From Patescibacteria group bacterium (GTDB lineage Bacteria > Patescibacteriota > Minisyncoccia > Phycocordibacterales > Phycocordibacteraceae): DNA of 64,000 nucleotides. Below, in pieces: positions 8,573 to 60,242 of this stretch. Position numbers and translations under genes: made by a program. Where the stretch lies: contig JBBUDY010000019.1 of the NCBI GenBank assembly GCA_038057055.1, positions 25,101 through 89,100 on the forward strand. Reading direction: 5' to 3'. Every line of letters begins with the position of its first letter. Position 1 is the stretch's first letter. Below the pieces are notes generated by a model that searched no databases, was not told the DNA's origin, and worked only from the letters and a program-made list of their open reading frames with translations.

Positions 8573-10243
8573 ATGGACCTACCGTTTGATGTTACCCATG
8601 AGGAGGGAAAGCTTGCAGAGATACGTGAGCGAGAAGAGGAGGATGTGGCGCGCATCCTCTCTGACAAATATGGTATACCCTACGTCGACCTCGCATTAAA
8701 GCAGATTGACAACGATGCACTTCGCATTATTCCTGAAGCGCAAGCCCGTGCCGCCGAGGCAGTTGCCTTCGCAAAAACCGCAAAGGTACTTTCGCTCGCT
8801 ATCCATAATCCAAATAATCCAGCTCTCGAAAAACTTTCTGCCGACCTCGCTGAACGCGGGTTCTCCACCCATACCTCCCTTGCCTCAAAGAAAAGTTTAG
8901 ATAAGGCATTTGCGCGCTACAAAGAACTCTCCTTTGCTACCGAATCAAAACCGGGTGTTTTTACTATCACCCAAGAAACATTCACAAGAGTCATAAATAA
9001 AAGTAATACACTTGCTTCTTTCACTCATGAACTCGATGTCGCGGTCTCCGAGAAATCACTTGATCGCGTCTCGCACCTGCTTGAAGTCATTCTCTCCGGT
9101 GCATTTGCGCTTCGTGCGTCTGATATTCACTTTGAGCCGGAAGAAACAAAGACTCTTCTGCGCTTGCGTATTGACGGCGTCTTATTCGATACTCTATTTT
9201 TTGACCCCGCGACATTCCATCAGCTCAACTCTCGCATCAAACTGCTCTCGGGCATAAAGTTGAATGTGAGCAATCAGGCGCAGGACGGTCGCTTCAGTGT
9301 TGAAAGGGACGGATTGCAAATCGAGATGCGTGTCTCCTTTATTCCGAGTAATTATGGCGAAACTATTGTGATGCGTATTCTAAATCCTGAAGCAACAAAA
9401 AAATCTACAAAAGATCTTGGTATTCACCCAAAACTTCTTGCACGACTTGAGACAGAAATACATCGACCAAACGGTATGCTTCTCAACACGGGACCAACCG
9501 GAAGCGGTAAGACGACCACGTTGTACACTTTTCTCCGAGAGATACACACACCAGAAATAAAAATCATCACGATTGAAGACCCGGTCGAGTATCATCTCGA
9601 GGGTATCGTGCAGACGCAAGTTGAAGGAGAAAAATATACGTTTGCCGAAGGGCTCCGCTCAATTGTGCGCCAAGACCCAGACATCATCATGGTCGGCGAA
9701 ATCCGCGACGGCGAAACGGCCAATATCGCTATCCAGGCAGCGCTCACTGGCCACTTCGTCTTCTCTACCCTTCACACCAACGACGCCGCCGGCACCTTCC
9801 CACGCCTCGTCGACCTTGGTGCAGACCCAAAGTCCTTTGGTTCGGCGGTCACTGTGTCAATGGCACAGCGACTTATGCGCACTCTTGATCCTGACAGAAA
9901 GAAAGAGCGATCCCTTACTGACGAAGAGAAAAGAATGATTGAAAAAGTGTTTGCCCCGCTTGCTGATAAATCACTTGTCCCTAAAAAAATAGAGACGGTA
10001 TGGGATCCTTCTCCCATAAGTGCAGATGAAACAGGTTATAAGGGGCGAGTCGGCATCCATGAAGCTATTTTTATGGACGATGAACTCGCTAACTTCATCC
10101 GTGATAATCCTCCCGAAAACGAGATCGCCAAATTGACGAGCAAGCAGGGCTACCTCACCCTCGCACAGGACGGTATTATCAAAGCACTCGCCGGCATCAC
10201 CTCCCTCTCCGAAGTCGCCGCCACCGTCGACCTTCCTCGATAA
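8573..10243 (+). CDS. pilB: Type IV pilus / type II secretion assembly ATPase (PilB/GspE family), copy 1
   Basis: Walker A GPTGSGKTTTLY, Asp and His boxes (VGEIRD, TGHFVFSTLHTN), N-terminal T2SSE_N-like region. Confidence 0.9.
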   Translation: MDLPFDVTHEEGKLAEIREREEEDVARILSDKYGIPYVDLALKQIDNDALRIIPEAQARAAEAVAFAKTAKVLSLAIHNPNNPALEKLSADLAERGFSTHTSLASKKSLDKAFARYKELSFATESKPGVFTITQETFTRVINKSNTLASFTHELDVAVSEKSLDRVSHLLEVILSGAFALRASDIHFEPEETKTLLRLRIDGVLFDTLFFDPATFHQLNSRIKLLSGIKLNVSNQAQDGRFSVERDGLQIEMRVSFIPSNYGETIVMRILNPEATKKSTKDLGIHPKLLARLETEIHRPNGMLLNTGPTGSGKTTTLYTFLREIHTPEIKIITIEDPVEYHLEGIVQTQVEGEKYTFAEGLRSIVRQDPDIIMVGEIRDGETANIAIQAALTGHFVFSTLHTNDAAGTFPRLVDLGADPKSFGSAVTVSMAQRLMRTLDPDRKKERSLTDEEKRMIEKVFAPLADKSLVPKKIETVWDPSPISADETGYKGRVGIHEAIFMDDELANFIRDNPPENEIAKLTSKQGYLTLAQDGIIKALAGITSLSEVAATVDLPR

Positions 10244-10248
10244 ACTCT

Positions 10249-11622
10249 ATGGGTCTCTCGCTTATATTTTTTCTTTTATTCATAACAATCGTTGTTAGTA
10301 TCGGTTTTGTTTCCTCTCGAGAAGAAACCGAAGATGGTTTTATGATTGCTGAACGTAAGGTGGAGGGGGTCCAGGTTGCTGCCACAATGAGCGCTGCTTT
10401 CTTTGACGGGTTTATGTTGTCTGTCTACATAGCCTATATCTATCAATATGGTTTTTCTGCTATCTGGATGTTTGTCGGCTTAGCGCTCGGGCTGTTGTTA
10501 CTCAAGAAATATGCGTGGCGAATTAAACAGAAAGCGGATGAGTTGAAGGTGTATTCGATGCCGGAATATTTTTATAGGATGTTGGGAAAGAGAAATGGGC
10601 TCATGTTTTCGTTGTTTCTCGTACTCCAATTTTTTCTTATACTGATTGTTAACCTCATAGTCAGTAGTAAGGTCTTATCGGCTATTTTTCCCATTTCATA
10701 TGTATTCGCTTTGAGTATCGGAGGGGTAATCGTTTTATCGTATCTTTTGCTCGCAGGATTTAAGGCGGTCGTAAGGACGGATTTCTTTCAAGTCATCATT
10801 GGGCTTATTATGGCGTTCACGGTATCCGTTTATCTGTTTGGTAAAACCCACATCCCGGCTGCAGAGTTTAGTCTCGGGGCACTCGGTCTTGGGGACACTC
10901 TCGGTTTTGTGATCCTTGGTGGTCTCGGAATGATGGCCGCTCCTGATTTATGGCAACGAATATTTGCAACAAAGGATGAAAAGAATTTGCGGCGGGGGCT
11001 CAACTATTCAGTCGTTATACTTATGGTATTCGCGGTTGTGGTTAGTGTCATTGGACTCGTTACAAAACAATTTTTTCCGGGCATCCTCCCTGAAGATGCC
11101 CTCGTCACCGGGTTTTCCCAACTGCTGCCTTTCGGACTTAAAGAACTTGGTATGATACTTTTGTATGCGGTGACACTCTCGTCAACGGATACCGTCACCT
11201 TTGTCGTCTCATCAATCTTTACGCGCGACCTCAATAACTACACAGAGAAATATAGCGCGACCTCCATGCGGAGGCTCACCCGCTTCTTCATGGTTGCTTT
11301 TATCATTCTCGCGCTCATCGTCGCTGTTTCATATCACGACATCATGCAGCTCGGGTTTTCGCTGGCGAGTTTGAACCTTGCGCTCTTCCCCGTGGTATTT
11401 GGATCACTCTATTGGAAGCTGAAACAAAAAGCGGTGTTTTGGAGCTTGGTTCTTGGGTTTCTAAGCATTCTTATACTGTTTGTCACGAGTCAGCTGAACC
11501 CACAAAACGCAATCATCTCATTGCCGGTTGTCTTATTCTCACTAATTATTTTTCAAAAACTTCTCAAGGCAGATTCTCCGCCTCTCGCCGAAGTCGCCGC
11601 CACGGTCGACTTGCCGAAATAA
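10249..11622 (+). CDS. Sodium:solute symporter (SSS) family transporter; C-terminus formed by a pilB-tail repeat
   Basis: About 12 TM helices. AGFKAVVRTDFFQ and PDLWQRIFATKDEK motifs are SSS-like. The last 14 codons duplicate the pilB tail. Confidence 0.7.
   Translation: MGLSLIFFLLFITIVVSIGFVSSREETEDGFMIAERKVEGVQVAATMSAAFFDGFMLSVYIAYIYQYGFSAIWMFVGLALGLLLLKKYAWRIKQKADELKVYSMPEYFYRMLGKRNGLMFSLFLVLQFFLILIVNLIVSSKVLSAIFPISYVFALSIGGVIVLSYLLLAGFKAVVRTDFFQVIIGLIMAFTVSVYLFGKTHIPAAEFSLGALGLGDTLGFVILGGLGMMAAPDLWQRIFATKDEKNLRRGLNYSVVILMVFAVVVSVIGLVTKQFFPGILPEDALVTGFSQLLPFGLKELGMILLYAVTLSSTDTVTFVVSSIFTRDLNNYTEKYSATSMRRLTRFFMVAFIILALIVAVSYHDIMQLGFSLASLNLALFPVVFGSLYWKLKQKAVFWSLVLGFLSILILFVTSQLNPQNAIISLPVVLFSLIIFQKLLKADSPPLAEVAATVDLPK
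11581..11622. repeat. pilB 3'-terminus repeat, copy 2 (PLAEVAATVDLPK*)
   Basis: Aligns to 10202-10243. Contains the identical 15-nt core CCGAAGTCGCCGCCA. Confidence 0.9.
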
Positions 11623-11632
11623 AGTAGGGGTG

Positions 11633-11641
11633 TGGTATAGT
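11633..11641 (+). promoter_or_regulatory. Extended -10 promoter TGgTATAGT, 6 nt before ATG 11648
   Basis: The motif TGTGGTATAGT is identical to the one upstream of hicB (49283-49293, minus strand). Confidence 0.5.
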
Positions 11642-11647
11642 TTATAT

Positions 11648-11863
11648 ATGAGCACCGTAACGATTCCCAAACAAGAATATCGAAGTCTGAAGCGTCAATC
11701 AGATGCGTATCGTGCTATTGCCGCCGGACGATTTGAATATGTGATCCGCGATAGCGTGGAAACCGTCATGAAAGATTTCGAAAAAACCGGGTTGTATAAC
11801 AAAAGATTCCTGGCCGATCTAGAAAAAGGACTGCGAAGGTCTTCTGTGTATAAGAATGCATGA
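11648..11863 (+). CDS. Putative antitoxin (partner of RelE/ParE-like toxin)
   Basis: 72-aa ORF whose stop overlaps the toxin start (ATGA). No recognisable family. Confidence 0.5.
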   Translation: MSTVTIPKQEYRSLKRQSDAYRAIAAGRFEYVIRDSVETVMKDFEKTGLYNKRFLADLEKGLRRSSVYKNA

Positions 11864-12108
11864 AAATCGCTCCGCTCCATGCGGACGTGACTGTGTATTT
11901 GCGTAAGCGTCAGTTGCTTCGTAAGTGGGATAAGGCGTCTAGACTTTTTGAGACAAACATTCGTCATCCGTCGTTAAATACGGAGCTTATGGAACCACAT
12001 TGGCGCGGCGTGTATTCTTTCAGAATCGATAAGAAATACCGTGCGATGTTTCTTCCAATCTCAAATGACAACGTAGAGATCATTGGAATTACAAATCATT
12101 ATAAATAA
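11860..12108 (+). CDS. RelE/ParE-superfamily toxin
   Basis: 82 aa. RHPSL...YRAMF pattern shared with the toxin at 30456-30701. Typical TA gene pair geometry. Confidence 0.6.
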   Translation: MKIAPLHADVTVYLRKRQLLRKWDKASRLFETNIRHPSLNTELMEPHWRGVYSFRIDKKYRAMFLPISNDNVEIIGITNHYK

Positions 12109-12147
12109 CGATTGACAGGATGTAACCGTTGTATATACTTCGGGTAT

Positions 12148-12432
12148 ATGAAAACTGCCATAAGCTTCAAGATAGACACAGACGTCCGCAACCGAGCACG
12201 AATTGTTGCTAAGAAAATCGGCGTGCCTCTTTCAATGGTCGTGAACCAGCAATTGAAGCAGTTTGCGAATAATCGAAGTATTGAGTTCTATGAGCCACTT
12301 ATCCCGAATGCGAAGACTCGAAAAATTCTCGATGAGGCCATGCGAGATATTAAAGAAGGTCGAGAGGACAAATTCTCTCCCGCATTTACGAATATAAAAG
12401 ATATGGACCAATGGCTTGATAGAAAGGCATGA
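12148..12432 (+). CDS. RelB/DinJ-family antitoxin
   Basis: MKTAISFKIDTDVRNRARIVAKKIGVPLSMVVNQQLKQF is an RHH/DinJ-like N-terminus. Overlaps the toxin start. Confidence 0.7.
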   Translation: MKTAISFKIDTDVRNRARIVAKKIGVPLSMVVNQQLKQFANNRSIEFYEPLIPNAKTRKILDEAMRDIKEGREDKFSPAFTNIKDMDQWLDRKA

Positions 12433-12692
12433 TTGTCATTTATTCTAAAAAATTCCGAAGGAATTACGAGAAGCTTCCACGTAAGCTGCAGGAAAAATTT
12501 AAGCACCGCCGAAACTTATTTCTTGAGAATCAGTTCGACTCGATTCTAAACAATCACCAATTATATGATCCATATGCAGGATGCCGAAGCATAAACGTAA
12601 CGGGTGATTACCGCGCCGTTTTCTATCACGAAAGCCCGGGTATCATCCAATTCATTGCTATCGGCACACATCACGAACTTTTTGGCACATAA
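12429..12692 (+). CDS. RelE/YafQ-family mRNA interferase toxin
   Basis: 87 aa. KKFRRNYEKLPRKLQEKF...GDYRAVF...IGTHHELF pattern. Confidence 0.7.
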   Translation: MIVIYSKKFRRNYEKLPRKLQEKFKHRRNLFLENQFDSILNNHQLYDPYAGCRSINVTGDYRAVFYHESPGIIQFIAIGTHHELFGT

Positions 12693-12693
12693 C

Positions 12694-12744
12694 AGCAGCA
12701 CCTCGCTTGCCGAAGTCGCCGCCATGGTCAACCTCCCGCGTTAA
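12694..12744. repeat. pilB 3'-terminus repeat, copy 3 (orphan; SSTSLAEVAAMVNLPR*)
   Basis: 17 codons align to 10193-10243. Starts 2 nt after the toxin stop and is not part of any ORF. Confidence 0.9.
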
Positions 12745-12817
12745 TTTATTTAGTCACTGTTTGTGTTCCATGTCTCTAACGGTCGTTAGACTTATGGAAC
12801 AGCTTAAAGGAACAATC

Positions 12818-12841
12818 TCCCGTTCATAGTCCTCAAGGCAA
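12818..12841. repeat. 24-nt direct repeat copy A (TCCCGTTCATAGTCCTCAAGGCAA)
   Basis: Matches 13668-13691 with one mismatch. Copy B forms the 5' strand of the closing stem of the candidate RNA. Confidence 0.85.
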
Positions 12842-12951
12842 AACCCTCAAATGAACGCGGGATGGGTATTGTGGCTGTACAGAACGGGCACTTGCGTATC
12901 TACAGGGGGGGGTAGGATTGGGGCATTAGAAACGGGACTAACCAATTTTGT

Positions 12952-13296
12952 ATGAATGAGACTCCCAGTAAAAAGATGGGTTTGGAACAGGGTCGAGATG
13001 GAAATTTGACCCATGAAAAAAAGAGAGAATATCGAAAAAGAAGAACACTGTACGAGAAAGCTATTAAGGAGGAATACAAAAATGGGAGACTGCTTGGGAA
13101 GCCCGATATCTTACTACCCGCTAATATAGATGCTATTTTTGAAAATTACTTTCGAGATAGAATAAAGGAGAGGGGTATTTCAGTTAGCGAAGAGGATTTA
13201 TTCAAGCTTATAGAAGATTTTGAAATGGCGGTAGCAGAGACAAAGGAATACGTCTTTGGGAAGATTAGAGAAGAACTTGATCATATGCCGCCATGA
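12952..13296 (+). CDS. Hypothetical protein (Lys/Glu-rich)
   Basis: 114-aa ORF in a cassette bounded by the 24-nt repeats. No recognisable motif. Confidence 0.5.
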   Translation: MNETPSKKMGLEQGRDGNLTHEKKREYRKRRTLYEKAIKEEYKNGRLLGKPDILLPANIDAIFENYFRDRIKERGISVSEEDLFKLIEDFEMAVAETKEYVFGKIREELDHMPP

Positions 13297-13350
13297 AGAA
13301 AACCATCGACGAATTGTAAAGTGTTTCACTACTAAACTAACATCACCACT

Positions 13351-13665
13351 ATGTCAGCAGAATTCCCAAAATCAGTTCTTCCTCCTCAAGTAGAAAAAAC
13401 TCCGGACGTAGACAAAGCTGAAGTACTGTCCGCCGCAATATCTCGAGTCGATGAAAAATTCGGTAATGTGCCAGATGATGCTTTTGTTCTAATAAAAAGA
13501 GAGAGCCCCTCCGAGGTTTCTGTGACTCTTTCAGATCGAAGGTACCACGCGCAGATTAATCTGTCGGAGACATTACATTTACCTGATGACATCGCTCTCA
13601 GGACAGAAACTGGAAGTGTGACAACTAGTTCAATGGGAGCACTAAGAAAGTTATTAAAACAGTAA
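13351..13665 (+). CDS. Hypothetical protein
   Basis: 104-aa ORF. Its stop lies 2 nt before repeat copy B. Confidence 0.5.
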   Translation: MSAEFPKSVLPPQVEKTPDVDKAEVLSAAISRVDEKFGNVPDDAFVLIKRESPSEVSVTLSDRRYHAQINLSETLHLPDDIALRTETGSVTTSSMGALRKLLKQ

Positions 13666-13667
13666 AA

Positions 13668-13908
13668 TCCCGTCCATAGTCCTCAAGGCAATAATCCAGC
13701 CCCAGTTTTGTAGCGCGATCGCTATTACCGGTTTCCCTCGTTTTGCTTCGTAGATTCCAAGTAAAATTGGTACCCGTCACAAAACTGGGGCTGGAGGGGA
13801 CGAAACACCTGAGGAGTTCCACAGCAACACGACCGAAATCGTGGAACCAAAGAGTCCTTGGGGAAACGCCCGAAGCCGTCAAGCCTTGCCTAGAGGAGTA
13901 TGAACAGG
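13668..13908 (+). ncRNA. Candidate structured RNA of unknown class (~240 nt)
   Basis: Perfect 16-bp stem 13696-13711/13779-13794. Closing stem 13669-13689 with 13883-13908. Hairpins 13816-13822/13841-13847 and 13857-13875. A separate ruvB promoter-like TGTGATAGAAT lies at 13954-13964. Strand is not proven. Confidence 0.4.
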
Positions 13909-13984
13909 ATTAAGGGAACACTTATGTCGCGGCACATGCTGCGACCTGGAAACTGTGATAGAATGTTAGCACTACAACATTTTT

Positions 13985-14980
13985 ATGTCAAGCTTGTCGA
14001 ATATCAATCCTGCCGCTCCTACCTCGCTCGATTCGGCACTCCGCCCTGTCAATTGGAATGAATACGTCGGACAGAAGCAGGTAAAAGCGAATGTCCGCAT
14101 CTCTCTTGATGCGGCAAAAAAGCGCGGGAGCATGCCCGAACATATCCTCTTCTACGGTCCACCGGGCGTCGGTAAGACAACACTCGCTCACTTGGTCGCC
14201 ACAACTCTCGAGTCGCCCTTAAAAAGCACATCGGGGGTTGCTATCGAGCGTGCGGGCGACCTCGCCGCTATTCTTACCAACCTTGAACCAAACACGGTTC
14301 TTTTTATCGATGAAATTCATCGGCTTTCACGAAAGATAGAGGAGCTTCTCTACCCTGCACTTGAATCGGGACATCTCGACATTGTGCTCGGGAAAGGCCC
14401 TTCGGCGCGCACCGTCGAGCTCTCACTCCCCTCTTTCACCCTTGTCGGTGCGACGACCCGTGTTGCGGAACTCTCGGGACCCTTGCGTTCGCGCTTTGGT
14501 GGCGGCGTGTTCCAGCTTGATTTCTACAATGACGAGGATTTGCGCGACATCATTCGCCGCTCGGCGTTTCTGCTTAACTTGGAAGCGCCCGAAGAGGTAA
14601 TCGAGCGTATCGCCGCAAGAAGCCGCGCGACGCCGAGAGTCGCGAACGCGCTTCTGAAGCGCGTTCGCGACTTCTCTGAGGTACATGAACGGGCGCTTTC
14701 TGAAGAGCTGTGCGATGAGGCGTGCGAACTCTTCGGCATCGACGCCCACGGTCTGACCAAAGATGATCGGCGCTATCTCGAGACGCTTCTGAAGAGCTTC
14801 CGAGGCGGCCCCGCCGGTGTTCAGGCACTCGCGGCTGCGCTCCACGAAGACTCTGACACCGTCGAACATGTCTATGAGCCCTATCTGCTCCGTCTCGGCT
14901 TCATCGAGCGCTCCTCGCGCGGCCGCATCCTCACTCCCGCCGGCCGCGCCTATCTTCAGGGTGACACGCTTCCAGTGTAA
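13985..14980 (+). CDS. ruvB: Holliday junction helicase RuvB
   Basis: Walker A GPPGVGKTTLA, Walker B LFIDEIHRL, sensor TTR. Confidence 0.96.
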   Translation: MSSLSNINPAAPTSLDSALRPVNWNEYVGQKQVKANVRISLDAAKKRGSMPEHILFYGPPGVGKTTLAHLVATTLESPLKSTSGVAIERAGDLAAILTNLEPNTVLFIDEIHRLSRKIEELLYPALESGHLDIVLGKGPSARTVELSLPSFTLVGATTRVAELSGPLRSRFGGGVFQLDFYNDEDLRDIIRRSAFLLNLEAPEEVIERIAARSRATPRVANALLKRVRDFSEVHERALSEELCDEACELFGIDAHGLTKDDRRYLETLLKSFRGGPAGVQALAAALHEDSDTVEHVYEPYLLRLGFIERSSRGRILTPAGRAYLQGDTLPV

Positions 14981-45790: not shown

Positions 45791-45845
45791 ATACATATAA
45801 GTATAGCGCGCCCCTCCCTTCTCGGGATGCACTTTTCACACATTG

Positions 45846-48741: not shown

Positions 48742-48766
48742 ATTTCCTGAGGCGGTGTGTTTTTGA

Positions 48767-48833: not shown

Positions 48834-48837
48834 TGTA

Positions 48838-49276: not shown

Positions 49277-49282
49277 AAAAGT

Positions 49283-49293
49283 ACTATACCACA
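49283..49293 (-). promoter_or_regulatory. Extended -10 promoter TGTGGTATAGT, 6 nt before hicB ATG
   Basis: Minus-strand reading TGTGGTATAGTactttATG-type geometry. Identical 11-mer to 11631-11641. Confidence 0.5.
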
Positions 49294-49391
49294 AAACATT
49301 GCATATACCCATGGCGTCTGCTATACTTTTGAATACCTGAATGCCTGCGATGCAGGCCTTCTTTTTAAAAAGTGCGACATACACAATCCAT

Positions 49392-50789: not shown

Positions 50790-50801
50790 TATAATCGTTG
50801 T

Positions 50802-51326
50802 ATGAATCTATTACACGATATTGATTCGGGAACGAAGGAAGCGATGAATGTCATCATCGAGATCCCGAAGGATTCGCATAACAAATACGAGATCGATAAA
50901 AAGACGGGACTTATTAAGCTCGACCGCGCGAACTATTCTTCTGCGGCGTATCCCTTTGATTATGGCTTCGTGCCGCAAACGCTCTGGGACGATGGTGATG
51001 CGCTCGATGTCATCGTGCTCACGACCTATCCGCTTGATGTGGGCGTACTCGTCGAAGTGCGTCCAGTCGCAATTCTGACCATGATTGATGATGGTGAATC
51101 TGACGATAAGGTTATTGCTGTGCCAGTAGAAGATCGAAGATGGGAAGATGTGCAAGAGCTACAGGATTTGAACAAGCATACGCTGCGGGAGATTGCGCAC
51201 TTTCTGGAGAACAATAAAAAATTGAAAAGTAAGCCCGTGAAGATCGAGATCGGTGAATATAAGGATCGTGCCAGCGCAGAGACAGCGTTCGAGCGCGCGC
51301 GGAAGCTGTATAATGATTCGAAATAA
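50802..51326 (+). CDS. ppa: Inorganic pyrophosphatase (family I)
   Basis: IEIPKDSHNKYEIDK, YPFDYGFVPQT, DGDALDVIVL motifs. Confidence 0.93.
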   Translation: MNLLHDIDSGTKEAMNVIIEIPKDSHNKYEIDKKTGLIKLDRANYSSAAYPFDYGFVPQTLWDDGDALDVIVLTTYPLDVGVLVEVRPVAILTMIDDGESDDKVIAVPVEDRRWEDVQELQDLNKHTLREIAHFLENNKKLKSKPVKIEIGEYKDRASAETAFERARKLYNDSK

Positions 51327-51327
51327 T

Positions 51328-51627
51328 ATGGAACAACTACCTGCTGATGAAAAATTGCTCCCCGAGGGTGAAGAAGGCATCGAAGTAACAGCACTCCCAG
51401 TGCTGCAGAGCTACGCGACAGCAAGCAAGCCGCTCCCAAAGGAAGCGCCCCCGGCAGCTCCTATCCAACCCGGGGTCCCTTCACCGCAGGCGCAGTCGTG
51501 GGGTACGGTCATTTCTATTATTATCATTGTGCTCATGATTATCATTGGTGCATTCTATGCGTGGGGGAAGCGAGTAGCACAAAATCAAGTTTTCACTGAA
51601 CCAGCAACAGCCCCAACAAGCAACTAA
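51328..51627 (+). CDS. Small membrane protein (Pro/Ala-rich, one C-terminal TM)
   Basis: ATG 2 nt after the ppa stop. [24 protein letters not shown]. Confidence 0.5.
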
Positions 51628-52447: not shown

Positions 52448-53977
52448 ATGTCACTCAAAATCATATTGCTCATGCTTGCGCTCTCGGGCGTCGGCGGAGT
52501 TGTGCTTGGGTATGTGCTACGTGTCCTTATTGGTCTCGCTCAGCGTGGCTCCATCGAGCTTGAGATTAAGCAAAAAATGCTCCAGGCCAAGGAGCAGGCG
52601 GCGAAGATTATCACGGATGCCGAATTCCGCAGTGCAGTCGTCGAGACCGAGCGTCTTGCGCCAGTCGAGGAACGTGAGGAGAAGATAAGTACACGGGAGG
52701 AACGCCTCGCCTTGCGCGAGGAATTTCTCGATTCACGCCAACGTGATGTAGATGAAAAAGAAGTTGAGGTGCGCTCGCGGGAGCAAGCTGCGGTGCATGC
52801 AAAAAATGAAGCGGAAAAATTGACTGCACAGCGTTCCAAAGAACTTGCGAAAGTCGCACACCTCTCCGAAGATAAAGCGCGTGAAGAACTTTTTTCTGAA
52901 ATTGAGCATGCTCATGAGGACGCGATACTTCTGCGTCTCCAGAAACTTGCCGCGAATGGTCGTGAACGCCTTGAGGACAAGGCGCGCGATATCCTCACCA
53001 CCACCATTCACCGACTCGGGAATGCCGTGAACGCCGAGGTAATGTCGCTCTCGGTTGTGCTCCCCTCCAACGAGACAAAAGGAAAGATTATCGGCAAAGA
53101 GGGTCGCAATATAAAGGCGTTTGAGCGCGCGACCGGCGTGGACGTGCTCATCGACGACGTGCCCGATCGCATCACTCTCTCCTCGTTTGACCCGCTCCGT
53201 CGTGCAATCGCGAAAATCGCGCTTGAGAAGCTTATCGTCGACGGCCGCATCCAGCCCGCAAAGATAGAAGAAACGGTCGAGAAGACACGTGCAGAAGTTG
53301 CTGAAATTGTGAAGCAGAAGGGTGAGGCCGCGGCATATGAGGCGGGGGTAATCGGGCTTGATCCCAAGCTCACTGCCCTTCTCGGCCGCCTTCACTTCCG
53401 TACGAGCTTCGGCCAGAACGTACTCACTCATTCTATTGAGATGGCGCACCTCGCCGGTATGCTCGCGACCGAGCTCGGCGCAGACGCGACCATCGCGCGC
53501 ACTGCCGCTCTTCTGCACGACATCGGCAAAGCAGTTGACCACGAGGTGCAAGGAACGCATGTAGAGATTGGTCGCCGCATCCTTGAGAAATTTGGCGTCA
53601 ACAATCGCGTCATCCTCGCGATGCAGTCGCACCACGACGAGCACCCGTACGAAACGCCGGAGGCAGTCATTGTGCAGGTGGCAGATGCTATCTCGGGCGG
53701 TCGCCCGGGCGCCCGCCGCGATACCGTGGACCGCTATCTTGAGCGCCTCGGCGACCTCGAGCGCCTCGCCACTACCTTCCCCGGCGTTGAGAAGGTCTAC
53801 GCCATCGCGGCAGGTCGCGAGATACGTATCTTCGTGAACCCCGGCAAGGTCACCGACCTCGCGATGCACAAGCTCGCGCGCGACATCGCGAAGCGCATTC
53901 AAGAAGAGCTCAAATACCCGGGCGAGATTAAAGTGAATATAATCAGAGAAAACAGAGTTGTAGAATTTGCCCGGTAA
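52448..53977 (+). CDS. rny: Ribonuclease Y
   Basis: N-terminal TM, coiled coil, KH (GKIIGKEGRNIKAFE), HD domain (LLHDIGKA...HH). Confidence 0.95.
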   Translation: MSLKIILLMLALSGVGGVVLGYVLRVLIGLAQRGSIELEIKQKMLQAKEQAAKIITDAEFRSAVVETERLAPVEEREEKISTREERLALREEFLDSRQRDVDEKEVEVRSREQAAVHAKNEAEKLTAQRSKELAKVAHLSEDKAREELFSEIEHAHEDAILLRLQKLAANGRERLEDKARDILTTTIHRLGNAVNAEVMSLSVVLPSNETKGKIIGKEGRNIKAFERATGVDVLIDDVPDRITLSSFDPLRRAIAKIALEKLIVDGRIQPAKIEETVEKTRAEVAEIVKQKGEAAAYEAGVIGLDPKLTALLGRLHFRTSFGQNVLTHSIEMAHLAGMLATELGADATIARTAALLHDIGKAVDHEVQGTHVEIGRRILEKFGVNNRVILAMQSHHDEHPYETPEAVIVQVADAISGGRPGARRDTVDRYLERLGDLERLATTFPGVEKVYAIAAGREIRIFVNPGKVTDLAMHKLARDIAKRIQEELKYPGEIKVNIIRENRVVEFAR

Positions 53978-53980
53978 CCA

Positions 53981-54271
53981 TTATTCAGCCTCTTGCATAT
54001 ATTCAGTCACGATAGTGATTACTTTTTGAATTGTTGCATTACAGTTTTTGAAGCTTATGAGCGAGAGGATTTCATTTCCGTGGATTCGGAATAATTCACT
54101 TATGAGAGCGTGTATGAACGACTGCGTCGCACCGCTTACTCCAGAGAAGTCTATTGTTACTTTTTTACCTTTAGAAACTCTCGGGGTTAACATTTTTATA
54201 CGGATATCTCTGGCGATATCCTTATTTTCAGCAAAATCGCCTATGAGTGGTTTAAGATGAATGATTGTCAT
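53981..54271 (-). CDS. STAS-like (DUF4325-type) small protein
   Basis: 96 aa. KVTIDFSGVSGATQSFIHALISELF matches the STAS-like pattern (hxxDFxGVxxxxxSFxxE). Overlaps the ATPase gene stop by 4 nt. Confidence 0.6.
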   Translation of the reverse strand: MTIIHLKPLIGDFAENKDIARDIRIKMLTPRVSKGKKVTIDFSGVSGATQSFIHALISELFRIHGNEILSLISFKNCNATIQKVITIVTEYMQEAE

Positions 54272-55266
54272 ACAAAAATTGGTTTCTTGTAACGCGCATG
54301 TTTGCGCGCTCGAACAGCTTTCGCATATACATTTCGTATATGTTCCAAGAGTGCAGTAAATTGCTCATTTACGTCAAGCGCGAGGTCGATTCCAATGACA
54401 GTTCCTTGCCAGTGCGGGTAGTCGTTCCCGGCGGAATGCCTATCTTCAAGAGGATCGGCCTGAAGCGGATTTTTGTTCTCGGTTTTTTGTTTCAATAGTT
54501 TATAAAAAGCTGTACCACTATAGATAACAAAGAAGTCACTATTAACCGCAGCGATCGATTTCACGAAAAAAAGTCCAGCCCCAGCATTCTGCTCGGTGCC
54601 GCCCTCACGGTCCGTAGTTCCAGTTATTCCCGGAGTTAATGCAAGACGAATTGACTGAAGATCGTCTGTCGAGTGATGAGATTTCCTGATAGTTCTACTG
54701 ATACCGACTCCTACGTCACTGATTCCTATACGGACAGTATTGCTTTTCGAATAGTATTGGGCGGCAACGAATGCCCCGCGAGAAGAATCAGCGTGTTCCA
54801 ATACGTTTCGAACAAGCTCACTCACGATATATTTAAGAGGTTCTGCATGAATTGGTGCGAGATGAAGGAGAGGAATCATTTCTGTAATGAAACGCGTTAA
54901 GGAAGTAGAGTCTTTTATCTGAGTAAGGGGAATGAAACGTCCACTCGAATCGTGTTCAGTCATGATGATTCCTGAGTCAATCTCCAAAAACTCAAACAAT
55001 CGCATCCGTTCGAAATAATGACGCGATTTCGCTTCAAGTGCTTCGCAATCAATTTTCTCTCTCGGCACTGTTTGTCCTAGAGCTGCGATCATAGTGAGCA
55101 CAATTGGATGTACGGAAATCCATTTCTTGTTTGCGGTTATGAGAAGTTCTTTTGGATTACTCGGATCAAATCTCCGTAAAAATGAATCGAGATTTCCTAA
55201 GAAAGCGCTATTGGGGAGATTTATCCTCATACGGCTTATATTACCGGGAATTATAGATTTATGCAA
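54268..55266 (-). CDS. GHKL-superfamily ATPase (anti-sigma/Ser-kinase-like) with unknown N-terminal domain
   Basis: N box SELVRNVLEHA, G1 ISDVGVGI, G2 GAGLFFVKS. TTG start in the track is uncertain (alternative ATG 55230). Confidence 0.6.
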   Translation of the reverse strand: MHKSIIPGNISRMRINLPNSAFLGNLDSFLRRFDPSNPKELLITANKKWISVHPIVLTMIAALGQTVPREKIDCEALEAKSRHYFERMRLFEFLEIDSGIIMTEHDSSGRFIPLTQIKDSTSLTRFITEMIPLLHLAPIHAEPLKYIVSELVRNVLEHADSSRGAFVAAQYYSKSNTVRIGISDVGVGISRTIRKSHHSTDDLQSIRLALTPGITGTTDREGGTEQNAGAGLFFVKSIAAVNSDFFVIYSGTAFYKLLKQKTENKNPLQADPLEDRHSAGNDYPHWQGTVIGIDLALDVNEQFTALLEHIRNVYAKAVRARKHARYKKPIFV

Positions 55267-55292
55267 TTCCCGGTAGTGTGTGGTACTATGTA

Positions 55293-55361
55293 TTGAAGTG
55301 TCCGGGTGAAATCAAGGTCAACATCATCCGCGAAAACCGCGTGGTTGAATTTGCCCGCTAA
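55293..55361. repeat. rny 3'-terminus repeat (orphan; LKCPGEIKVNIIRENRVVEFAR*)
   Basis: 55302-55361 encodes the same 19 aa plus stop as 53918-53977, with 14 nt differences, all synonymous. Confidence 0.95.
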
Positions 55362-55408
55362 CTTTATAAGATTTCTATAACTTGCATAACTTTATAAAGT
55401 TTGGTAGT

Positions 55409-56350
55409 ATGGGTTTTATGACCATACGGCAGAAATTAGAAATTATCCAGAAGATGCTGGGACTAACCCAGACGAAGCTCGCCGCGAAGTTCGGCGTATC
55501 TTTTGCCGCCTTCAACAGTTGGTGGACTGATAAATCCACACCGCGGTCAAAGATGCAGACCGCTATAAATGAGCTTTTTTTGGAAGTGACGGGGCAAAAA
55601 ATAATTCCTGCCGACCAGCTCACCGCAAAGAAGCAGGTGTTACAACAAAGGTCGAAAGCACACAGAAGCCTCATTAATAGAATTCTGGATAATCCAGATA
55701 TTCGGGATCAATTTATTCTTAAGCTTACCTACCACAGCAATCGCATCGAGGGGAGTACGCTCTCCGAACCTGATACTGCTGCGGTTCTTTTTGACAACGT
55801 TGCACTGCCAAACAAAAGTTTGACCGAACAACTGGAAGCAAAGAACCACCAAACCGCTTTGAATTATCTGTTTGATCACGTTGCAAAAAAAGAAAAAATT
55901 AACGAAGCATTGGTACTAAAACTTCACAGTATCCTCATGAACGGTATTCGTTCGGACGCCGGCACATACCGCAATCATGCAGTGAGAATCATCGGCGTTC
56001 ATTTGCCGACGGCGAATTATATGAGCATTCATACATTGATGCCAAAAGTAATGGCTTGCGCCGTCAGAAAGACGAAAGATATTGTCGCGCTATCCGCTAG
56101 TGTCCATAGCAGATTTGAACAGGTGCACCCTTTCTCTGATGGCAATGGCCGTGTCGGTCGTCTACTTATGAATGCAATGCTTCTTAATGCAAATTTTGCT
56201 CCAGCGATAATTCGCCAAGAGAATAAACAACTGTATTATACATATCTCTATAAAGCGCAGATTAAAGAAGACCAAAGCCAGTTAGAGGATTTCTTTTGTG
56301 AAGCGGTCATAGACGGCTTCAAAATTCTGGAACGGACGGACACACGTTAG
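55409..56350 (+). CDS. Fic-domain protein with N-terminal XRE-type HTH
   Basis: HTH LGLTQTKLAAKFGVSFAAFNSWW. Fic motif HPFSDGNGRVGR. Confidence 0.88.
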   Translation: MGFMTIRQKLEIIQKMLGLTQTKLAAKFGVSFAAFNSWWTDKSTPRSKMQTAINELFLEVTGQKIIPADQLTAKKQVLQQRSKAHRSLINRILDNPDIRDQFILKLTYHSNRIEGSTLSEPDTAAVLFDNVALPNKSLTEQLEAKNHQTALNYLFDHVAKKEKINEALVLKLHSILMNGIRSDAGTYRNHAVRIIGVHLPTANYMSIHTLMPKVMACAVRKTKDIVALSASVHSRFEQVHPFSDGNGRVGRLLMNAMLLNANFAPAIIRQENKQLYYTYLYKAQIKEDQSQLEDFFCEAVIDGFKILERTDTR

Positions 56351-56404
56351 TCGCCACACAAGTCGGGCTGTCTCTCAAAGATTTTCTGAAGCTGTAAGAG
56401 TAAT

Positions 56405-56429
56405 AAAAACCCGGCGCGTACGCGCCGGG
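56405..56429 (-). terminator. Rho-independent terminator (minus-strand operon end; possibly bidirectional)
   Basis: Stem CCCGGCGCG/CGCGCCGGG with a U-tract on the minus strand. Confidence 0.8.
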
Positions 56430-56445
56430 GCCCCAAGAGTCGAGG

Positions 56446-56583
56446 CTATTCCACTCGTGCCGACCTGCGGACTTGCAGGTCATGTGCCCGGATCTCCGTC
56501 CGCGCGGCCCGTTTCACAGGCAGTGGGCGCACTCGTGGCGGGTCCTTCTCCCGCTTTTTCTGCGGGACATTTGTGGCTACCAT
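56446..56583 (-). CDS. 45-aa Arg/Pro/Lys-rich peptide co-transcribed with the radical SAM gene
   Basis: MVATNVPQKKREKDPPRVRPLPVKRAARTEIRAHDLQVRRSARVE. SD GGAGG 8 nt upstream of the ATG, 25 nt after the rSAM stop, terminator right after. Confidence 0.5.
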   Translation of the reverse strand: MVATNVPQKKREKDPPRVRPLPVKRAARTEIRAHDLQVRRSARVE

Positions 56584-56608
56584 TACTCTCACCTCCTTTC
56601 TCTTGCAG

Positions 56609-58342
56609 TTAGACTTCTTTGAGAATAAGTTGATCGAGATCTTCGAGATACTCCCCCACCTTGATGTTGAAGCCGAGCGAGGGGAATGGTTCCGTCGGCT
56701 GCGGATAGTAGTACCAGCGTTCCGGCTGTGTTGAAGCGACGATACCGAGCCATCCGGCGGATTCAATGCGTTCTCCTGCCAGCCCACTTTCAAGCGTAGC
56801 CACGAGCTCTGTAACCACAGCTCTCGCATCCGGCTCGGACAGTCCAAGCACGAGTGGCAACTTCTGTTCTGTTTCGACAATCGTGTAACCGACCCGAAGG
56901 AATCCAAGCGCCATTCGTTGCGACAACTCCAAGCCCGTAGAATCAGCCTGTGCCGCAAGGAGCCAGATTCTGAAACCAGATCCCATAAGTCTTGATTGCA
57001 GATCCGTGTCCCCGCCCTCTCGGTCAACACTTGTGGAAGGAAACGCGATGTTGGTGACCAACCAACCCAGCATCGACGCGTCGGTGTCGAGCCCTATACG
57101 GCGAGCGTCGACCTCGACATCCCACTCCCGAAAATCTATCTCGCCTCTCCCGGCATTGACCATTGCGTTATACAGCGGTCGAAGCATGGAGGACTGAAGG
57201 ATAAACGGGAGGTTCTTTTGCTGCTGCTCGGATAAGAACCGAGCGGTTGCGACGTCGTGAGAGTTCGGGAAATGCATGAGCAACAGACGCGCGTTAATGC
57301 CGGCTTCTCCGAGCACTTGCACTGCGTTCTTGCTTGCGCTTGATACGGCGCGTTTCTGCACTGCATCGAGCACCTCCTGGTCCATTGTCTCCACGCCGAT
57401 TGACAGCGTGTGGCAACCGGCCACCGTAAGACGCGGCGCAATTTCCCTCGTTACGTGGTCACAACGTGTGATCCCCCACCACCCAAACTCCGGATGACGA
57501 GATTTGACTCCCGCAAGCAGTTCCAGAAGCACCGCGGTCTTTTTCTTATGCAACCCGAGAGTCGAGTCGATGAGGTAGTTATTAGTGACGCCGTGCCGGA
57601 GCAGAAACTCCGCCTCATCTGCGACTGTACGTGGCTCGCGATACCGCACACCGACAAGCTCACCGCGGATGGCACAGTAGGTACAGCCATACGGACATCC
57701 CCGCATCATCTCGAGGAGCCCCATCGGCTGTAGGCCGAGGTAACGGTACTTCTGCACGTAGCTCGCGAAGTCAAACGTGCCATTGACCGTGTACAACGCT
57801 TCCGCGCTGTACCCGTCAAGCATTTCGCGCTGTGTGCTCCCGACGACTCCTTCTCTGGTGCACATGCCGGGGACGTCCCGTTTGCCGGAGTCGAGTGCAG
57901 AAAGTAGCTGGGGTATCTCAACGCCGTCGCCAGCATAGAAGATATCTGCGGTGATCTGTTCGAGCGCATTTCCCCGAACGAGATTCATCGCCCCACCACC
58001 AACCACAATCGGTACCGAAGAGATCTTTCGTATCGACTTGGCGACATGCCGGACGATATTCCCTTGTGCCACCGTTGGCCAAATAAGGAACACTGCCGTG
58101 TGTGTGCCGCCGAGACGCCGTGCGACCGCCTCTTCAACCGCTCGCTCGGGATTTTCAGGATTGCTGAAGGCCACGAGGTTGCAATCAAGAAGCTCTACAC
58201 TGACTCCGGCGACGATGAGCCGGTACGCAACTTCGAACAAAACTCGAGGAACCATCAGTCCTTCGAGTGACCCCGGCCCCGACAACTTTCTGACATCCGC
58301 ATAGCTAGATGTATTGCACGCCAGGACGCATAAGATTCGCAT
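56609..58342 (-). CDS. B12-binding-domain radical SAM enzyme with long C-terminal extension
   Basis: CxxxCxxC cluster MRGCPYGCTYCAI. N-terminal Rossmann-like B12-type region. SD AAGGAG 6 nt before ATG 58342. Confidence 0.8.
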   Translation of the reverse strand: MRILCVLACNTSSYADVRKLSGPGSLEGLMVPRVLFEVAYRLIVAGVSVELLDCNLVAFSNPENPERAVEEAVARRLGGTHTAVFLIWPTVAQGNIVRHVAKSIRKISSVPIVVGGGAMNLVRGNALEQITADIFYAGDGVEIPQLLSALDSGKRDVPGMCTREGVVGSTQREMLDGYSAEALYTVNGTFDFASYVQKYRYLGLQPMGLLEMMRGCPYGCTYCAIRGELVGVRYREPRTVADEAEFLLRHGVTNNYLIDSTLGLHKKKTAVLLELLAGVKSRHPEFGWWGITRCDHVTREIAPRLTVAGCHTLSIGVETMDQEVLDAVQKRAVSSASKNAVQVLGEAGINARLLLMHFPNSHDVATARFLSEQQQKNLPFILQSSMLRPLYNAMVNAGRGEIDFREWDVEVDARRIGLDTDASMLGWLVTNIAFPSTSVDREGGDTDLQSRLMGSGFRIWLLAAQADSTGLELSQRMALGFLRVGYTIVETEQKLPLVLGLSEPDARAVVTELVATLESGLAGERIESAGWLGIVASTQPERWYYYPQPTEPFPSLGFNIKVGEYLEDLDQLILKEV

Positions 58343-58502
58343 GATCATCTCCTTAGTTTTGAAAAGGTCTTCCAACAGCATTAGGCATCTTTTACGAAGG
58401 ACAGTCAAAAATATCTTACATAAACGGAAAGATATCTCTATTATGTTGCGTATTCAGTAACTTTATGTAATATAGAAGTTGTAAGAGATTTACGACAATT
58501 TC

Positions 58503-59234
58503 ATGGAGATAAAAGATGTCCTAGCGCAGTTTAGCCTTACCGAGAAAGAGTCCTCGATCTATCTTGCTGCGCTTGAGTTGGGTACTACGACCGCGGCGGC
58601 TATTGCAAAAAAGGCCGGAATCCAGCGCACGCACTTCTACGATATATCCGAAAGTCTTATTACTGCAGGCTTTTTGCAACGAGTTTCTAAAGAGAACAGA
58701 CGACTCTACTCTGCTGCTGATCCCGAAACGCTTATTGAAATTGAGGAAAAGAAAATTGAAAAACTGAAGAAGACTCTTCCCGAGTTTAAGGCGCTCTACA
58801 ACACCTCCGGCAAGAAGCCGAAGATAACCTACTATGAAGGGCGAAGTGGCATCGAACAAATTAACGACGATACGTTACGGTATAAAGGCGAATCGGTCGC
58901 ATTCACAACTCCTCGGTTCGTCTCCTTCCCGAGTAGGAGTACGGGGAAAGCATATATCGAGAAGCGTGTTGCTATGGGTAATCATGTGCGCGTGATTGGA
59001 GAGGACGCTCCAGAGATTCGCGAACTACAGGGGAAAGATGAAGAAGAACTAAGAGAGACAAGGATATTATCTAAGGACATATTTCGTTCGGAAATAGAAA
59101 TTGGCATGTATGGAAGCAAGGTTTTCATTATTGATTACAAGGAGCAATTTGGATTCATCATTGAGGACACAGAAATTGCCCGCGTTATGAAGATGATTTT
59201 CGAGATTGTCTGGGGCCGATGGGAGAAATCGTAG
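58503..59234 (+). CDS. TrmB-like transcriptional regulator
   Basis: wHTH LTEKESSIYLAALELGTTTAAAIAKKAGIQRTHFYDISESL. Divergent from the rSAM operon. Confidence 0.7.
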   Translation: MEIKDVLAQFSLTEKESSIYLAALELGTTTAAAIAKKAGIQRTHFYDISESLITAGFLQRVSKENRRLYSAADPETLIEIEEKKIEKLKKTLPEFKALYNTSGKKPKITYYEGRSGIEQINDDTLRYKGESVAFTTPRFVSFPSRSTGKAYIEKRVAMGNHVRVIGEDAPEIRELQGKDEEELRETRILSKDIFRSEIEIGMYGSKVFIIDYKEQFGFIIEDTEIARVMKMIFEIVWGRWEKS

Positions 59235-59350: not shown

Positions 59351-59623
59351 ATGAACAAAGCAGATATCGTAGACAAGGTACATGGCGTTCTCGGCACCAC
59401 CAAGGCCGACGCCGAGCGCGCTGTCGAGACGGTCATTAACTCTATCGTTTCCAGCCTCAAGGGTGGGGACGAAGTGTCGGTTGCCGGTCTCGGCATCTTC
59501 GCGACGAAGGCGCGCCCAGCGCGCCAGGGCAGGAATCCCCGCACCGGCGAGACGATTCACATCAACGCTTCTCGCACCGCGAAGTTCCGCGCCGCGAAGG
59601 CGCTGAAGGACGCGGTGAAATAA
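59351..59623 (+). CDS. hup: DNA-binding protein HU
   Basis: MNKADIVDKV...GRNPRTGETIHI arm motif. Confidence 0.95.
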   Translation: MNKADIVDKVHGVLGTTKADAERAVETVINSIVSSLKGGDEVSVAGLGIFATKARPARQGRNPRTGETIHINASRTAKFRAAKALKDAVK

Positions 59624-59642
59624 GTTTTTCGTGCCAAACACA

Positions 59643-59672
59643 GCGCGGCGCCTCTGGCGCCGCGTTGTTTTC
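59643..59672 (+). terminator. Rho-independent terminator after hup
   Basis: Stem GCGCGGCGCC/GGCGCCGCG, then TGTTTTCTT. Confidence 0.8.
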
Positions 59673-60077
59673 TTATATCAACCAAGGAACACCGACTATT
59701 TGGGCGTTTGCCTCCTCTACCTCGCTCTTGATTTTTTCAAAAGTAACAAGCAACGCCCGGTATCTCTCCAGTTTTTGTGTAGGGGTGTCTCCACTTGTGT
59801 CTATCTCGGCAACATTGAAATCGAAAAAATATCGAACAGCGAGCTCTCCTCCCGGTGAGCCAAGCTGCAAAAGCTTCCCGAGCTCTGGGTAACTTATAGA
59901 CAATCGTCTACGTACTTCAGAAGTTTGTTCCTCCAATAGTGCCACACGAATCTGATCAAAAGGCTTGCTCGCCTGCCTCGCTATTTTCTCAATCTGCTCC
60001 CTTATGGCGGAAATTTTCTCTTCGTCGCTCTGTTCTCCTGACGGAGCCCGTGTCCCCCCTGGCGCGTTGATGCTCAT
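59673..60077 (-). CDS. Hypothetical 134-aa protein
   Basis: ORF downstream of the TrmB-like gene remnant. No motif recognised. Confidence 0.5.
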   Translation of the reverse strand: MSINAPGGTRAPSGEQSDEEKISAIREQIEKIARQASKPFDQIRVALLEEQTSEVRRRLSISYPELGKLLQLGSPGGELAVRYFFDFNVAEIDTSGDTPTQKLERYRALLVTFEKIKSEVEEANAQIVGVPWLI

Positions 60078-60095
60078 AATGGTATTACTGTACCA

Positions 60096-60242
60096 CTATT
60101 TAATTTCTTTCGCGTTCCCCCACACAACATCAAAGATTGGCCGCAAAGCGGCTACGATATCTGCCGACTCTATGACCACAACAAAAGGTTTTTCTCCGAG
60201 GCTGGTAATCGCGAGCTTGTTTTCATAGATCGAGAAGTCCAT
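60096..60242 (-). pseudogene. Remnant of a TrmB-like regulator (C-terminal 48 codons only)
   Basis: MDFSIYENKLAITSLGEKPFVVVIESADIVAALRPIFDVVWGNAKEIK aligns to the C-terminus of 58503-59234 (IEIGMYGSKVFIIDYKEQFGFIIEDTEIARVMKMIFEIVW). An in-frame stop lies 17 codons upstream of its ATG. Confidence 0.6.

Follow-up and report, generated by a model that had tools for sequence, protein, structure and literature searches.

Rhs loci, contact-dependent inhibition (CDI) loci (cdiA-CT/cdiI) and type VI secretion system (T6SS) effector-immunity loci carry orphan arrays attributed to C-terminal displacement, for which homology-facilitated illegitimate recombination (HFIR) has been proposed (PMC5361080, where Jackson et al. 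2009 is cited for displacement and orphan arrays). In such arrays an intact gene is followed by displaced 3′ ends, each starting with a conserved piece, and newer modules lie proximally. No recombinase is involved; in the proposed route one junction is anchored by homology and the other is joined illegitimately, with spread by homologous recombination in naturally transformable bacteria. The swapped part is a functional tip together with its immunity gene, and the product changes. Here we describe arrays of comparable shape at housekeeping genes in a 64-kb stretch of DNA (the window, by which we mean the whole stretch) from an ultra-small groundwater bacterium of the candidate phyla radiation (CPR), Candidatus Kaiserbacteria. 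In these arrays, accessory cassettes lie between diverged copies of one end of a conserved feature, for instance the 3′ end of rny or the 5′ end of comEC.

Other described systems share part of this anatomy. Cis-mobilizable elements (CIMEs) leave the gene intact, three att-like copies can bracket two elements, integrase-less elements exist and toxin-antitoxin (TA) cargo is common (PMC5704250). CIMEs derive from tyrosine-integrase elements, have intact relatives at the same sites and show an att core and length that are defined. Integrons hold ordered small cassettes, often single genes or TA pairs, with a repeated element between them and a fixed point at which new ones join. At recombination hotspots of naturally transformable bacteria, such as the minimal mobile elements of Neisseria, accessory cassettes that lack mobility genes are swapped through homologous recombination in the conserved genes on either side; one cassette takes the place of another and gene ends are not duplicated, whereas the window retains earlier ends and cassettes as arrays.

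A sensitive self-comparison of the window, covering copies within 6 kb of each other (E ≤ 0.014), detected eight diverged direct repeats, all of them in six loci: the 3′ ends of pilB and rpmB (three copies each), and the 5′ end of comEC, the 3′ end of rny, a two-hairpin module and the 5′ end of a non-coding RNA (ncRNA), each in two copies. Pairs lying more than 6 kb apart, which make up about nine tenths of the pair space and served as control, gave a single match at E < 1. At each locus one copy was joined to the intact conserved feature, the remaining copies were orphans, and accessory open reading frames (ORFs) lay between them. An earlier reading made from the letters alone (the sequence-only reading) had listed the same six loci and described termini repeated two or three times, one fused and the rest orphaned, with three copies bracketing two cassettes as a mark of serial accretion, and this description proved true.

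All orphans preserved their stop or start codon. The claim that the copies had evolved as coding sequence received strong support from synonymous versus non-synonymous codon changes at rny (12/0) and good support at rpmB (7/3), whereas changes at pilB (5/5) and comEC (4/6) were only conservative. Since drift after a duplication in situ would not leave 12 synonymous changes with no non-synonymous one, we conclude that the copies are xenologous, each having once been a live gene end, as had been suggested.

The rny locus provided the clearest case. The RNase Y gene (52448–53978, + strand) ends in the fused copy (last 61 nt, 53918–53978) and is followed by a cassette on the opposite strand (53981–55266, −) that encodes a DUF4325 (STAS-like) protein (53981–54271) and an HATPase_c protein (54268–55266). 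Beyond it lies the orphan rny 3′ copy (55302–55362, +; PGEIKVNIIRENRVVEFAR up to the stop), which is 77% identical to the fused copy and differs from it at 14 nt with no amino acid changed. An outer island (55382–59234) follows, with genes for a Fic protein (+), a radical-SAM protein (56609–58408, −) and a TrmB-like protein (58503–59234, +). At its right edge the sequence TAG-TGA is joined straight to the HU promoter, which leaves a zero-length orphan, and HU itself is encoded at 59351–59623. As separate observations, the Fic protein (55382–56350) has matches to PDC-S04 and SoFic, both candidate defence families of PADLOC (E = 4e-43), and the HATPase protein has a partial match to the DrmA N-terminal region (E = 4e-13).

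We then compared the window with 173 related loci, cited here by L numbers where needed, which amount to 2.08 Mb and 4914 ORFs with about 8 kb of flank per locus. In most of the ~75 lineages compared at rny, the rny stop is followed by the hupA promoter, which is the ancestral state; orphan rny ends were present in eight, with differing cargo. This cargo comprised the HATPase pair (window, L087 and L110), HicAB (L145 and L111) and a PemK-like toxin (L117 and L101), the smallest cassettes being a HicAB pair of 470 nt and a single PemK-like gene of 595 nt. The HATPase cassette was common to the window and L110 at 85% Rny identity, and in L098 four rny-end copies bracketed three cassettes. All eleven rny orphans in the eight loci retained IIRENRVVEFAR and the stop. 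The rny orphans measured 0–3, 39–45, 61–66 or ~108 nt, and five of them began at K-Y-P-G. A TGA stop of rny was associated with empty sites (p = 0.002).

The comEC locus showed the same arrangement at a 5′ end. The gene (32675–34169, −) starts with the retained copy (34104–34169; its first 63 nt plus 4 upstream nt), and its ATG overlaps the stop of a toxin gene. The cassette (34162–34740, −) consists of three hairpins (34625–34740) with a promoter, a gene for a 62-aa antitoxin (34400–34588) and a ParE toxin gene (34162–34413), and is followed by the orphan 5′ copy (34742–34807, −; beginning MSVLIAIVSGFTSGVGVQSFF), which is 82% identical to the retained one. Duplicates of the comEC 5′ end recurred in L170 and L171, with a homologous ParE cassette, and in L167. 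The cassette and the duplication are common to the window and the L171 lineage, in which ComEC is 80% identical and the TA genes share 67.5% nucleotide identity, and in both lineages the cassette joins after codon 21. The gene-proximal copies beside the homologous TA cassettes were the most similar pair between the window and L171 (54/63 nt), and the two orphans were the least similar pair (42/63 nt), each resembling the live alleles of other lineages. Some of the structures, such as this TA cassette, are old rather than freshly mobile. Two of the hairpins carry the palindrome CGCTATAGCG in loop or stem, which may be an antitoxin operator, and in the first hairpin the GTAGACACC/GGTGTCTAC stem is terminator-like and conserved in L171.

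Between pilB and ruvB, three cassettes were stacked. The pilB gene (8573–10243, +; a T2SSE/MshEN ATPase by Pfam) ends in the fused copy (last 50 nt, 10194–10243). The first cassette (10249–11622, +) encodes a sodium:solute symporter (SSF) and runs in frame into the second pilB copy (11573–11622, core 11584–11622). Lacking a stop codon itself, the transporter ORF borrows that of copy 2 and ends in ADSPPLAEVAATVDLPK, a chimeric C-terminus made by the junction. The second cassette (11648–12692, +) holds two small two-gene modules, the first TA-like (11648–11863 plus 11860–12108, +) and the second composed of RelB (12112–12432) and a YafQ/ParE toxin (12429–12692, +), with a TTGACA-16-TATACT promoter at 12112–12139. 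The third pilB copy (12695–12744, +) is an orphan, SSTSLAEVAAMVNLPR with its stop, and is followed by a 59-nt spacer; the three copies are 80–85% identical.

The next repeat in this gap is not a gene end. An orphan copy of an ncRNA 5′ end (12804–12841, +), corresponding to the 5′ strand of the closing stem, precedes a third cassette of two ORFs (12952–13665, +; 114 aa and 104 aa) that match no family and are missing in the strain variant L001. The retained ncRNA (13654–13915, +) consists of the second repeat copy (13654–13691), 82% identical to the first, and a structured body, and lies just upstream of ruvB (13985–14980). This conserved structured RNA (13660–13915) has a long closing stem, a fold z-score of −6.1 and nine covarying pairs in a 12-species alignment; at least 30 Paceibacteria species have it between pilB and ruvB, the window copy having an extra hairpin of ~75 nt, and had no Rfam match even at E ≤ 1. 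The pilB-ruvB synteny was present in 80 species, mostly with a gap of 250–450 nt that contains a structured RNA, compared with 3.7 kb in the window. About 20 species had other cargo in this gap, and one species, at 48% PilB identity, had its own pilB-end duplicate between two paralogous ORFs.

At rpmB (L28; 29956–30198, +), the last 55 nt (30144–30198) form the first copy. A cassette of two overlapping small ORFs (30220–30701, +; 79 aa and 81 aa), TA-like by architecture and lying behind TGTGATATAAT, separates it from the orphan second copy (30708–30762, +; TIKKNSAFIALSKAGAI and stop), and the two copies share 78% identity (30144–30197 versus 30708–30761). A second cassette with a 422-aa ORF (30755–32023, −), without a family match, leads to a weak third copy of 22 nt (32070–32091, +; 19/22 nt matching), which is collinear with the native junction between the L28 end and the sodA upstream region in relatives. 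An rpmB 3′ duplicate was also present in L167. Finally, two copies of a two-hairpin 'terminator module' (48207–48273 and 48766–48833, +; 81% identity) enclose an ORF of up to 128 aa (48355–48741, +) that matches no family, and the module was also duplicated in L103, around different cargo.

Pfam assignments confirmed much of the cargo proposed for these cassettes, namely the SSF transporter, RelB/YafQ-ParE, ParE, DUF4325 with HATPase, and Fic; several cassette ORFs had no family match. Two of the proposed TA pairs (11648–12108 and 30220–30701) are TA-like by architecture only, with a weak YoeB match for the first. Cassettes had also been said often to start with leaderless promoters. Extended −10 elements are visible by eye, and a consensus two-hexamer scan was not enriched over shuffled sequences, the single strong promoter found being the one at 12112–12139; the leaderless-promoter claim thus stands on inspection. 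The close abutment of toxin stops and repeats was borne out, with gaps of 2 nt at pilB (12692 to 12695) and ~1–6 nt at rpmB (30701 to 30708); at comEC the toxin stop and the comEC start overlap as ATGA.

In order to determine how widely such structures occur, we searched the relatives for terminus duplicates and found them at rny, pilB, comEC, rpmB, ruvB, ruvC and mgsA. In 1.9 Mb of sequence from related loci, scanned blind, we identified repeats of 36–170 nt at ruvB (L015 and L055), ruvC (L050) and mgsA (L102 and L134/L139), among others. One PemK-like family occurred at the rny, ruvB and pilB ends of different genomes. The synteny comparison proposed by the sequence-only reading revealed both empty sites and alternative cargo at the same termini. 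Since duplicates with differing cargo and empty sites are found across relatives, we conclude that the phenomenon is lineage-wide, recurrent and polymorphic.

Comparison of closely related strains showed that recombination reaches into these arrays. Between the window and L087, blocks of 100% identity alternate with blocks of 100–900 nt at 57–92% identity. The last identical block (53750–55369) extends over the rny end and the orphan with the HATPase cassette between them, and stops no more than ~30 nt past the orphan; beyond 55369 the cargo differs until the hupA promoter. In L001, which is 99.5–99.9% identical to the window elsewhere, a segment with the antitoxin gene and the ncRNA 5′ repeat as its limits has been replaced, and both pilB copy 3 and the two-ORF cassette are absent. 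In L098, the fused rny copy and orphan 3 are equal at 58 of 60 nt upstream and at 35 of 45 nt at the end, a mosaic that fits a foreign end joined through a crossover inside the gene. Given the mosaics of L087, L001 and L098, homologous recombination is pervasive and uses the repeat sequences. The same strain comparison turned up two further differences. The nusA end and the whole of ppa (50455–51333) are 57–83% identical between the window and the otherwise 100%-identical L087, so that here recombination with a distant lineage has replaced an allele over the length of a gene. Between clpP and rny, L087 (7443–7877) has an extra segment of ~385 nt with a small hydrophobic ORF, where the window has a gap of 50 nt.

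We next looked for an enzyme, a site or a motif that could account for the insertions. The statement that the window holds no integrase, transposase or attC site was upheld by Pfam, regular-expression and phmmer searches; Pfam on its ~60 ORFs returned no integrase, resolvase or transposase. Searches by regular expression and phmmer of the 4914 ORFs found no tyrosine or serine recombinase beside any cargo at more than 40 cargo-bearing sites in the 2.08 Mb. The recombinase-type matches in these data were two Xer-like genes ~6.6 kb from rny and one weak match, and an IS30-like gene was seen in L017 only. No 6–8-mer recurred in the repeats of as many as three loci, no identical core was present at the gene-proximal repeat edge, and inspection of cargo/orphan junctions revealed no convincing microhomology. 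A degenerate pattern for an rny-end mimic (attP) had no match in 2.9 million viral contigs. Repeat lengths ranged from 22 to 170 nt across genes and from 0 to ~108 nt at rny alone, and many cargo insertions at the same sites had no duplicate at all.

A defined att site, as in CIMEs, would always be of one length and have an invariant core where the crossover takes place, and the rny orphans are of variable length. No integrase IntI, attI or attC-type imperfect palindrome was found, and the spacers are copies of the local gene end that differ from locus to locus rather than one repeated element as in integrons. Insertion sequences (IS), transposons and miniature inverted-repeat transposable elements fit no better, the window having no transposase and the repeats being direct, diverged and 22–170 nt long. 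As for the 28-bp dif-like sites of integrative mobile elements exploiting Xer, the repeats of different loci are coding ends with no sequence in common, a comparison made without an explicit dif model.

We favour, with a probability of roughly 55%, the view that the cassettes are recombinase-free insertions, which host recombination makes and spreads from the DNA of related Paceibacteria after its uptake. A donor fragment comprising the conserved gene, its own version of the gene end and the adjacent cargo would anchor by homology in the conserved gene body, probably in a RecA-dependent manner. The other junction would be an illegitimate or very short-homology join, falling 0–170 nt into the recipient's own version of that end, as in HFIR. 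The outcome would be one intact gene, gained cargo and a displaced orphan end of a different lineage, and repeat events would stack cassettes proximally to the gene. Orphan and gene body would then act as ordinary homology patches, through which cassettes could be copied, swapped or deleted by homologous recombination. Two filters would decide what survives: only gene-regenerating joins would be kept in a genome with intergenic spaces of 20–110 nt, and near-identical repeats would be lost by deletion while diverged ones would persist. It would be because both filters act that the arrays have the look of a terminus and its diverged copy.

Uptake would probably proceed through ComEC and type IV pili. 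The competence genes comEC, pilB, pilC and those for pilins are encoded in the window, and natural competence has been shown experimentally for the CPR lineage Saccharibacteria (PMC10633639). The same model has been proposed for T6SS and Rhs orphan arrays (PMC5361080). Of the three options that the sequence-only reading had left, a transformation-driven process is the best fit. The option of a dedicated terminus-targeting process was not sustained, as repeat length varies, the loci share no motif and many insertions have no duplicate. The pattern looks like a by-product of homology-anchored recombination, with selection keeping genes whole in a very compact genome, rather than like a targeting device.

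Several points weigh against this explanation. Every step of the mechanism is addressed indirectly, by sequence, with recA and the remaining genome lying outside the window. Repeats of 40–66 nt at ~80% identity are poor RecA substrates, and in experiments the frequency of HFIR lay orders of magnitude below that of homologous recombination (PMC5361080). The constant junctions (codon 21 of comEC and K-Y-P-G of rny) could reflect common descent or site specificity. The identity of the donor-derived copy is inconsistent between loci: at comEC it is the gene-proximal copy that moves together with the cassette, and at rny the fused copy of the window looks native, the orphans of the window and L110 being more alike. 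An AT-rich codon version of the rny end, tried as a mark of the incoming cassette, had no association with cargo (7/21 versus 16/46, p = 1) and was also carried by the closest empty-site relatives, L088 and L089. Finally, a recombinase acting in trans may be compatible with a survey of ~8-kb flanks.

The main rival is that the cassettes are decayed site-specific elements, CIME-like remnants of insertions for which a tyrosine integrase targeted the gene end and the element carried a surrogate end, with tandem accretion; the integrases would have been lost, or would act in trans from elsewhere in the genome, a phage or a plasmid. The anatomy fits that of integrative and mobilizable elements, as described in streptococci, and of CIMEs, which have direct repeats that include the 3′ (rarely 5′) ends of housekeeping genes, ribosomal-protein genes among them, cause no disruption and accrete in tandem (PMC5704250). 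The constant junctions of the comEC TA cassette in two lineages and of one rny orphan class also speak for it, as does the limited flank of ~8 kb per locus. Nevertheless, the absence of an integrase both in the window and beside the more than 40 cargo-bearing sites is hard to reconcile with it, as are the at least nine different termini, each of which would need its own integrase specificity. Repeat length at a single gene (0–108 nt), the lack of an identical gene-proximal core or of a motif common to the loci, and the lack of an rny-end mimic in viral contigs argue in the same direction. Moreover, no intact related element was seen at any surveyed site, the units measure 0.45–1.4 kb, and cassettes of 470–600 nt are too small for recombination functions. 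We thus consider decayed elements, which the sequence-only reading had also entertained, unlikely: their anatomy fits, and the missing integrase and the variable repeat length do not.

It is about as doubtful that the cassettes form a true class of recombinase-free selfish elements, TA or defence modules evolved to carry a recoded essential-gene terminus as a targeting arm. If they did, a competent relative would insert the cassette beside the gene and lose no DNA of its own, the orphan ends would be continually re-templated and serve as landing pads, and integron-like arrays (up to four copies, as in L098) would arise from host recombination alone.

Considerably less probable is that these are old fixed functional structures, with orphans serving as terminators, promoters or leader peptides and cassettes inherited vertically. 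In its favour, the comEC TA cassette and its duplication are shared at 80% ComEC and 67.5% TA-gene identity, the window and L110, at 85% Rny identity, have the HATPase cassette in common, and the reading frames of the orphans are intact. Against this, presence and absence vary among near-identical strains (L001 and L087), most relatives have empty sites, different lineages have different cargo at the same site, and the orphans of different genomes stem from different alleles. In addition, a purely regulatory, non-coding orphan would not hold a purely synonymous pattern.

The tandem concatenation of strain alleles during metagenome assembly is very improbable, for although all data come from metagenomes, as assembled genomes or as contigs, breaks in contigs are frequent at these loci and strain mixtures do occur, the copies share exact stretches of at most 15–17 bases, below assembler k-mer sizes, and the architecture recurs across unrelated studies and habitats. 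The sequence-only reading had named chimeric joins as a possible objection; the same joins were reproduced by different pipelines from different samples, in independent assemblies from ENA (ERZ1292616, Hainich aquifer), NCBI (GCA_964363235.1) and two Logan runs. As at most 17 shared exact bases are too few for a k-mer mis-join and independent assemblies agree, the window repeats are, on this sequence comparison, not an assembly chimera.

Among described systems, the closest analogue in logic is the sequential C-terminal displacement of Rhs, CDI and T6SS loci, of which the arrays would be a housekeeping-gene version. Displaced homologous 3′ fragments of other alleles (four copies in L098) and homologous recombination around the array are found here as in HFIR arrays. 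The exchange of a functional tip is not: the displaced end is functionally equivalent, its changes being synonymous, and the cargo consists of separate genes past the stop codon. The hosts also differ, being housekeeping genes (rny, rpmB, pilB, ruvB and comEC) in a CPR organism, and 5′ ends and an ncRNA end are involved in addition to 3′ ends. The finding is therefore one of displacement logic in a new setting, not a categorically new terminus-targeting system.

CPR genomes are tiny and tightly packed and have few recognisable mobile elements, yet they hold many islands. A survey of horizontal transfer in aquifer Patescibacteria likewise reports many islands (PMC12455944); a term search of it turned up neither integrases nor direct repeats, and thus no sign of a terminus-duplicate architecture. 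The pattern described here offers a concrete and testable route by which CPR bacteria could gain and stack TA modules, Fic proteins, transporters and defence candidates without integrases. It bears on the old question of how TA cassettes move without mobility genes, and suggests that the displacement-array logic of polymorphic toxin loci can work at ordinary housekeeping genes. Orphan gene ends with synonymous divergence provide a signature for metagenome searches. For annotation, short orphan ORFs and C-terminal extensions such as that of the SSF transporter fused to the pilB end should be read as recombination scars.

The genomic setting is that of a compact CPR gene set, and the closest species-level relatives carry the names Candidatus Kaiserbacteria, Paceibacterota or Parcubacteria. 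The window encodes polA, tsaE, pilB, ruvB, yebC, ruvC, a penicillin-binding protein, dnaN, dnaA, rnpA and yidC, a conserved type IV secretion system (T4SS)-like cluster, rpmB, sodA, comEC, rnhA, recJ, pgk and tpiA, a type IV pilus block, and nusA, ppa, clpP, rny, hupA and mgsA. The pilus and competence context (40096–45832) comprises pilin-like genes (40096–41446), pilC (T2SSF; 42826–44295) and a second PilB-like ATPase gene (44042–45832). The T4SS-like cluster (22155–28658, −) encodes a VirB2/TrbC-type pilin, a TraG/VirB4 P-loop ATPase, PrgI and a TraC-like protein. Its synteny was kept in all relatives fetched around comEC, so the cluster is core and not an integrative and conjugative element. 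This agrees with a paper whose title reportedly describes a Patescibacteria T4SS homologous to monoderm conjugation machinery (PMC12102498).

Another island lies between the second pilB-like gene and nusA, where a 3.5-kb block (45848–49354) is replaced by ~50 nt in the close relative L087 (4501–4554); the block comprises ORFs of 289 aa and 127 aa, TrmB-like and HicB-like genes and the two-hairpin-module cassette. In L026, the ruvB-yebC gap (11536–14117) contains six copies of a ~30-nt motif, TGCTGGCTGTCTGGGACGCTGTTGGAACC, that separate small ORFs, each copy with a terminator-like hairpin before it and a promoter-like TTGACA after it; this array repeat is not a gene end. The hupA-mgsA gap (59624–61603) had no detectable terminus duplicate in the window, while L102 and L134/L139 have their mgsA 3′ duplicates there. 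It holds three more small gene pairs, compared with ~40 nt in L145, and the stop of one, a ParDE-like pair (61071–61611), overlaps the mgsA end.

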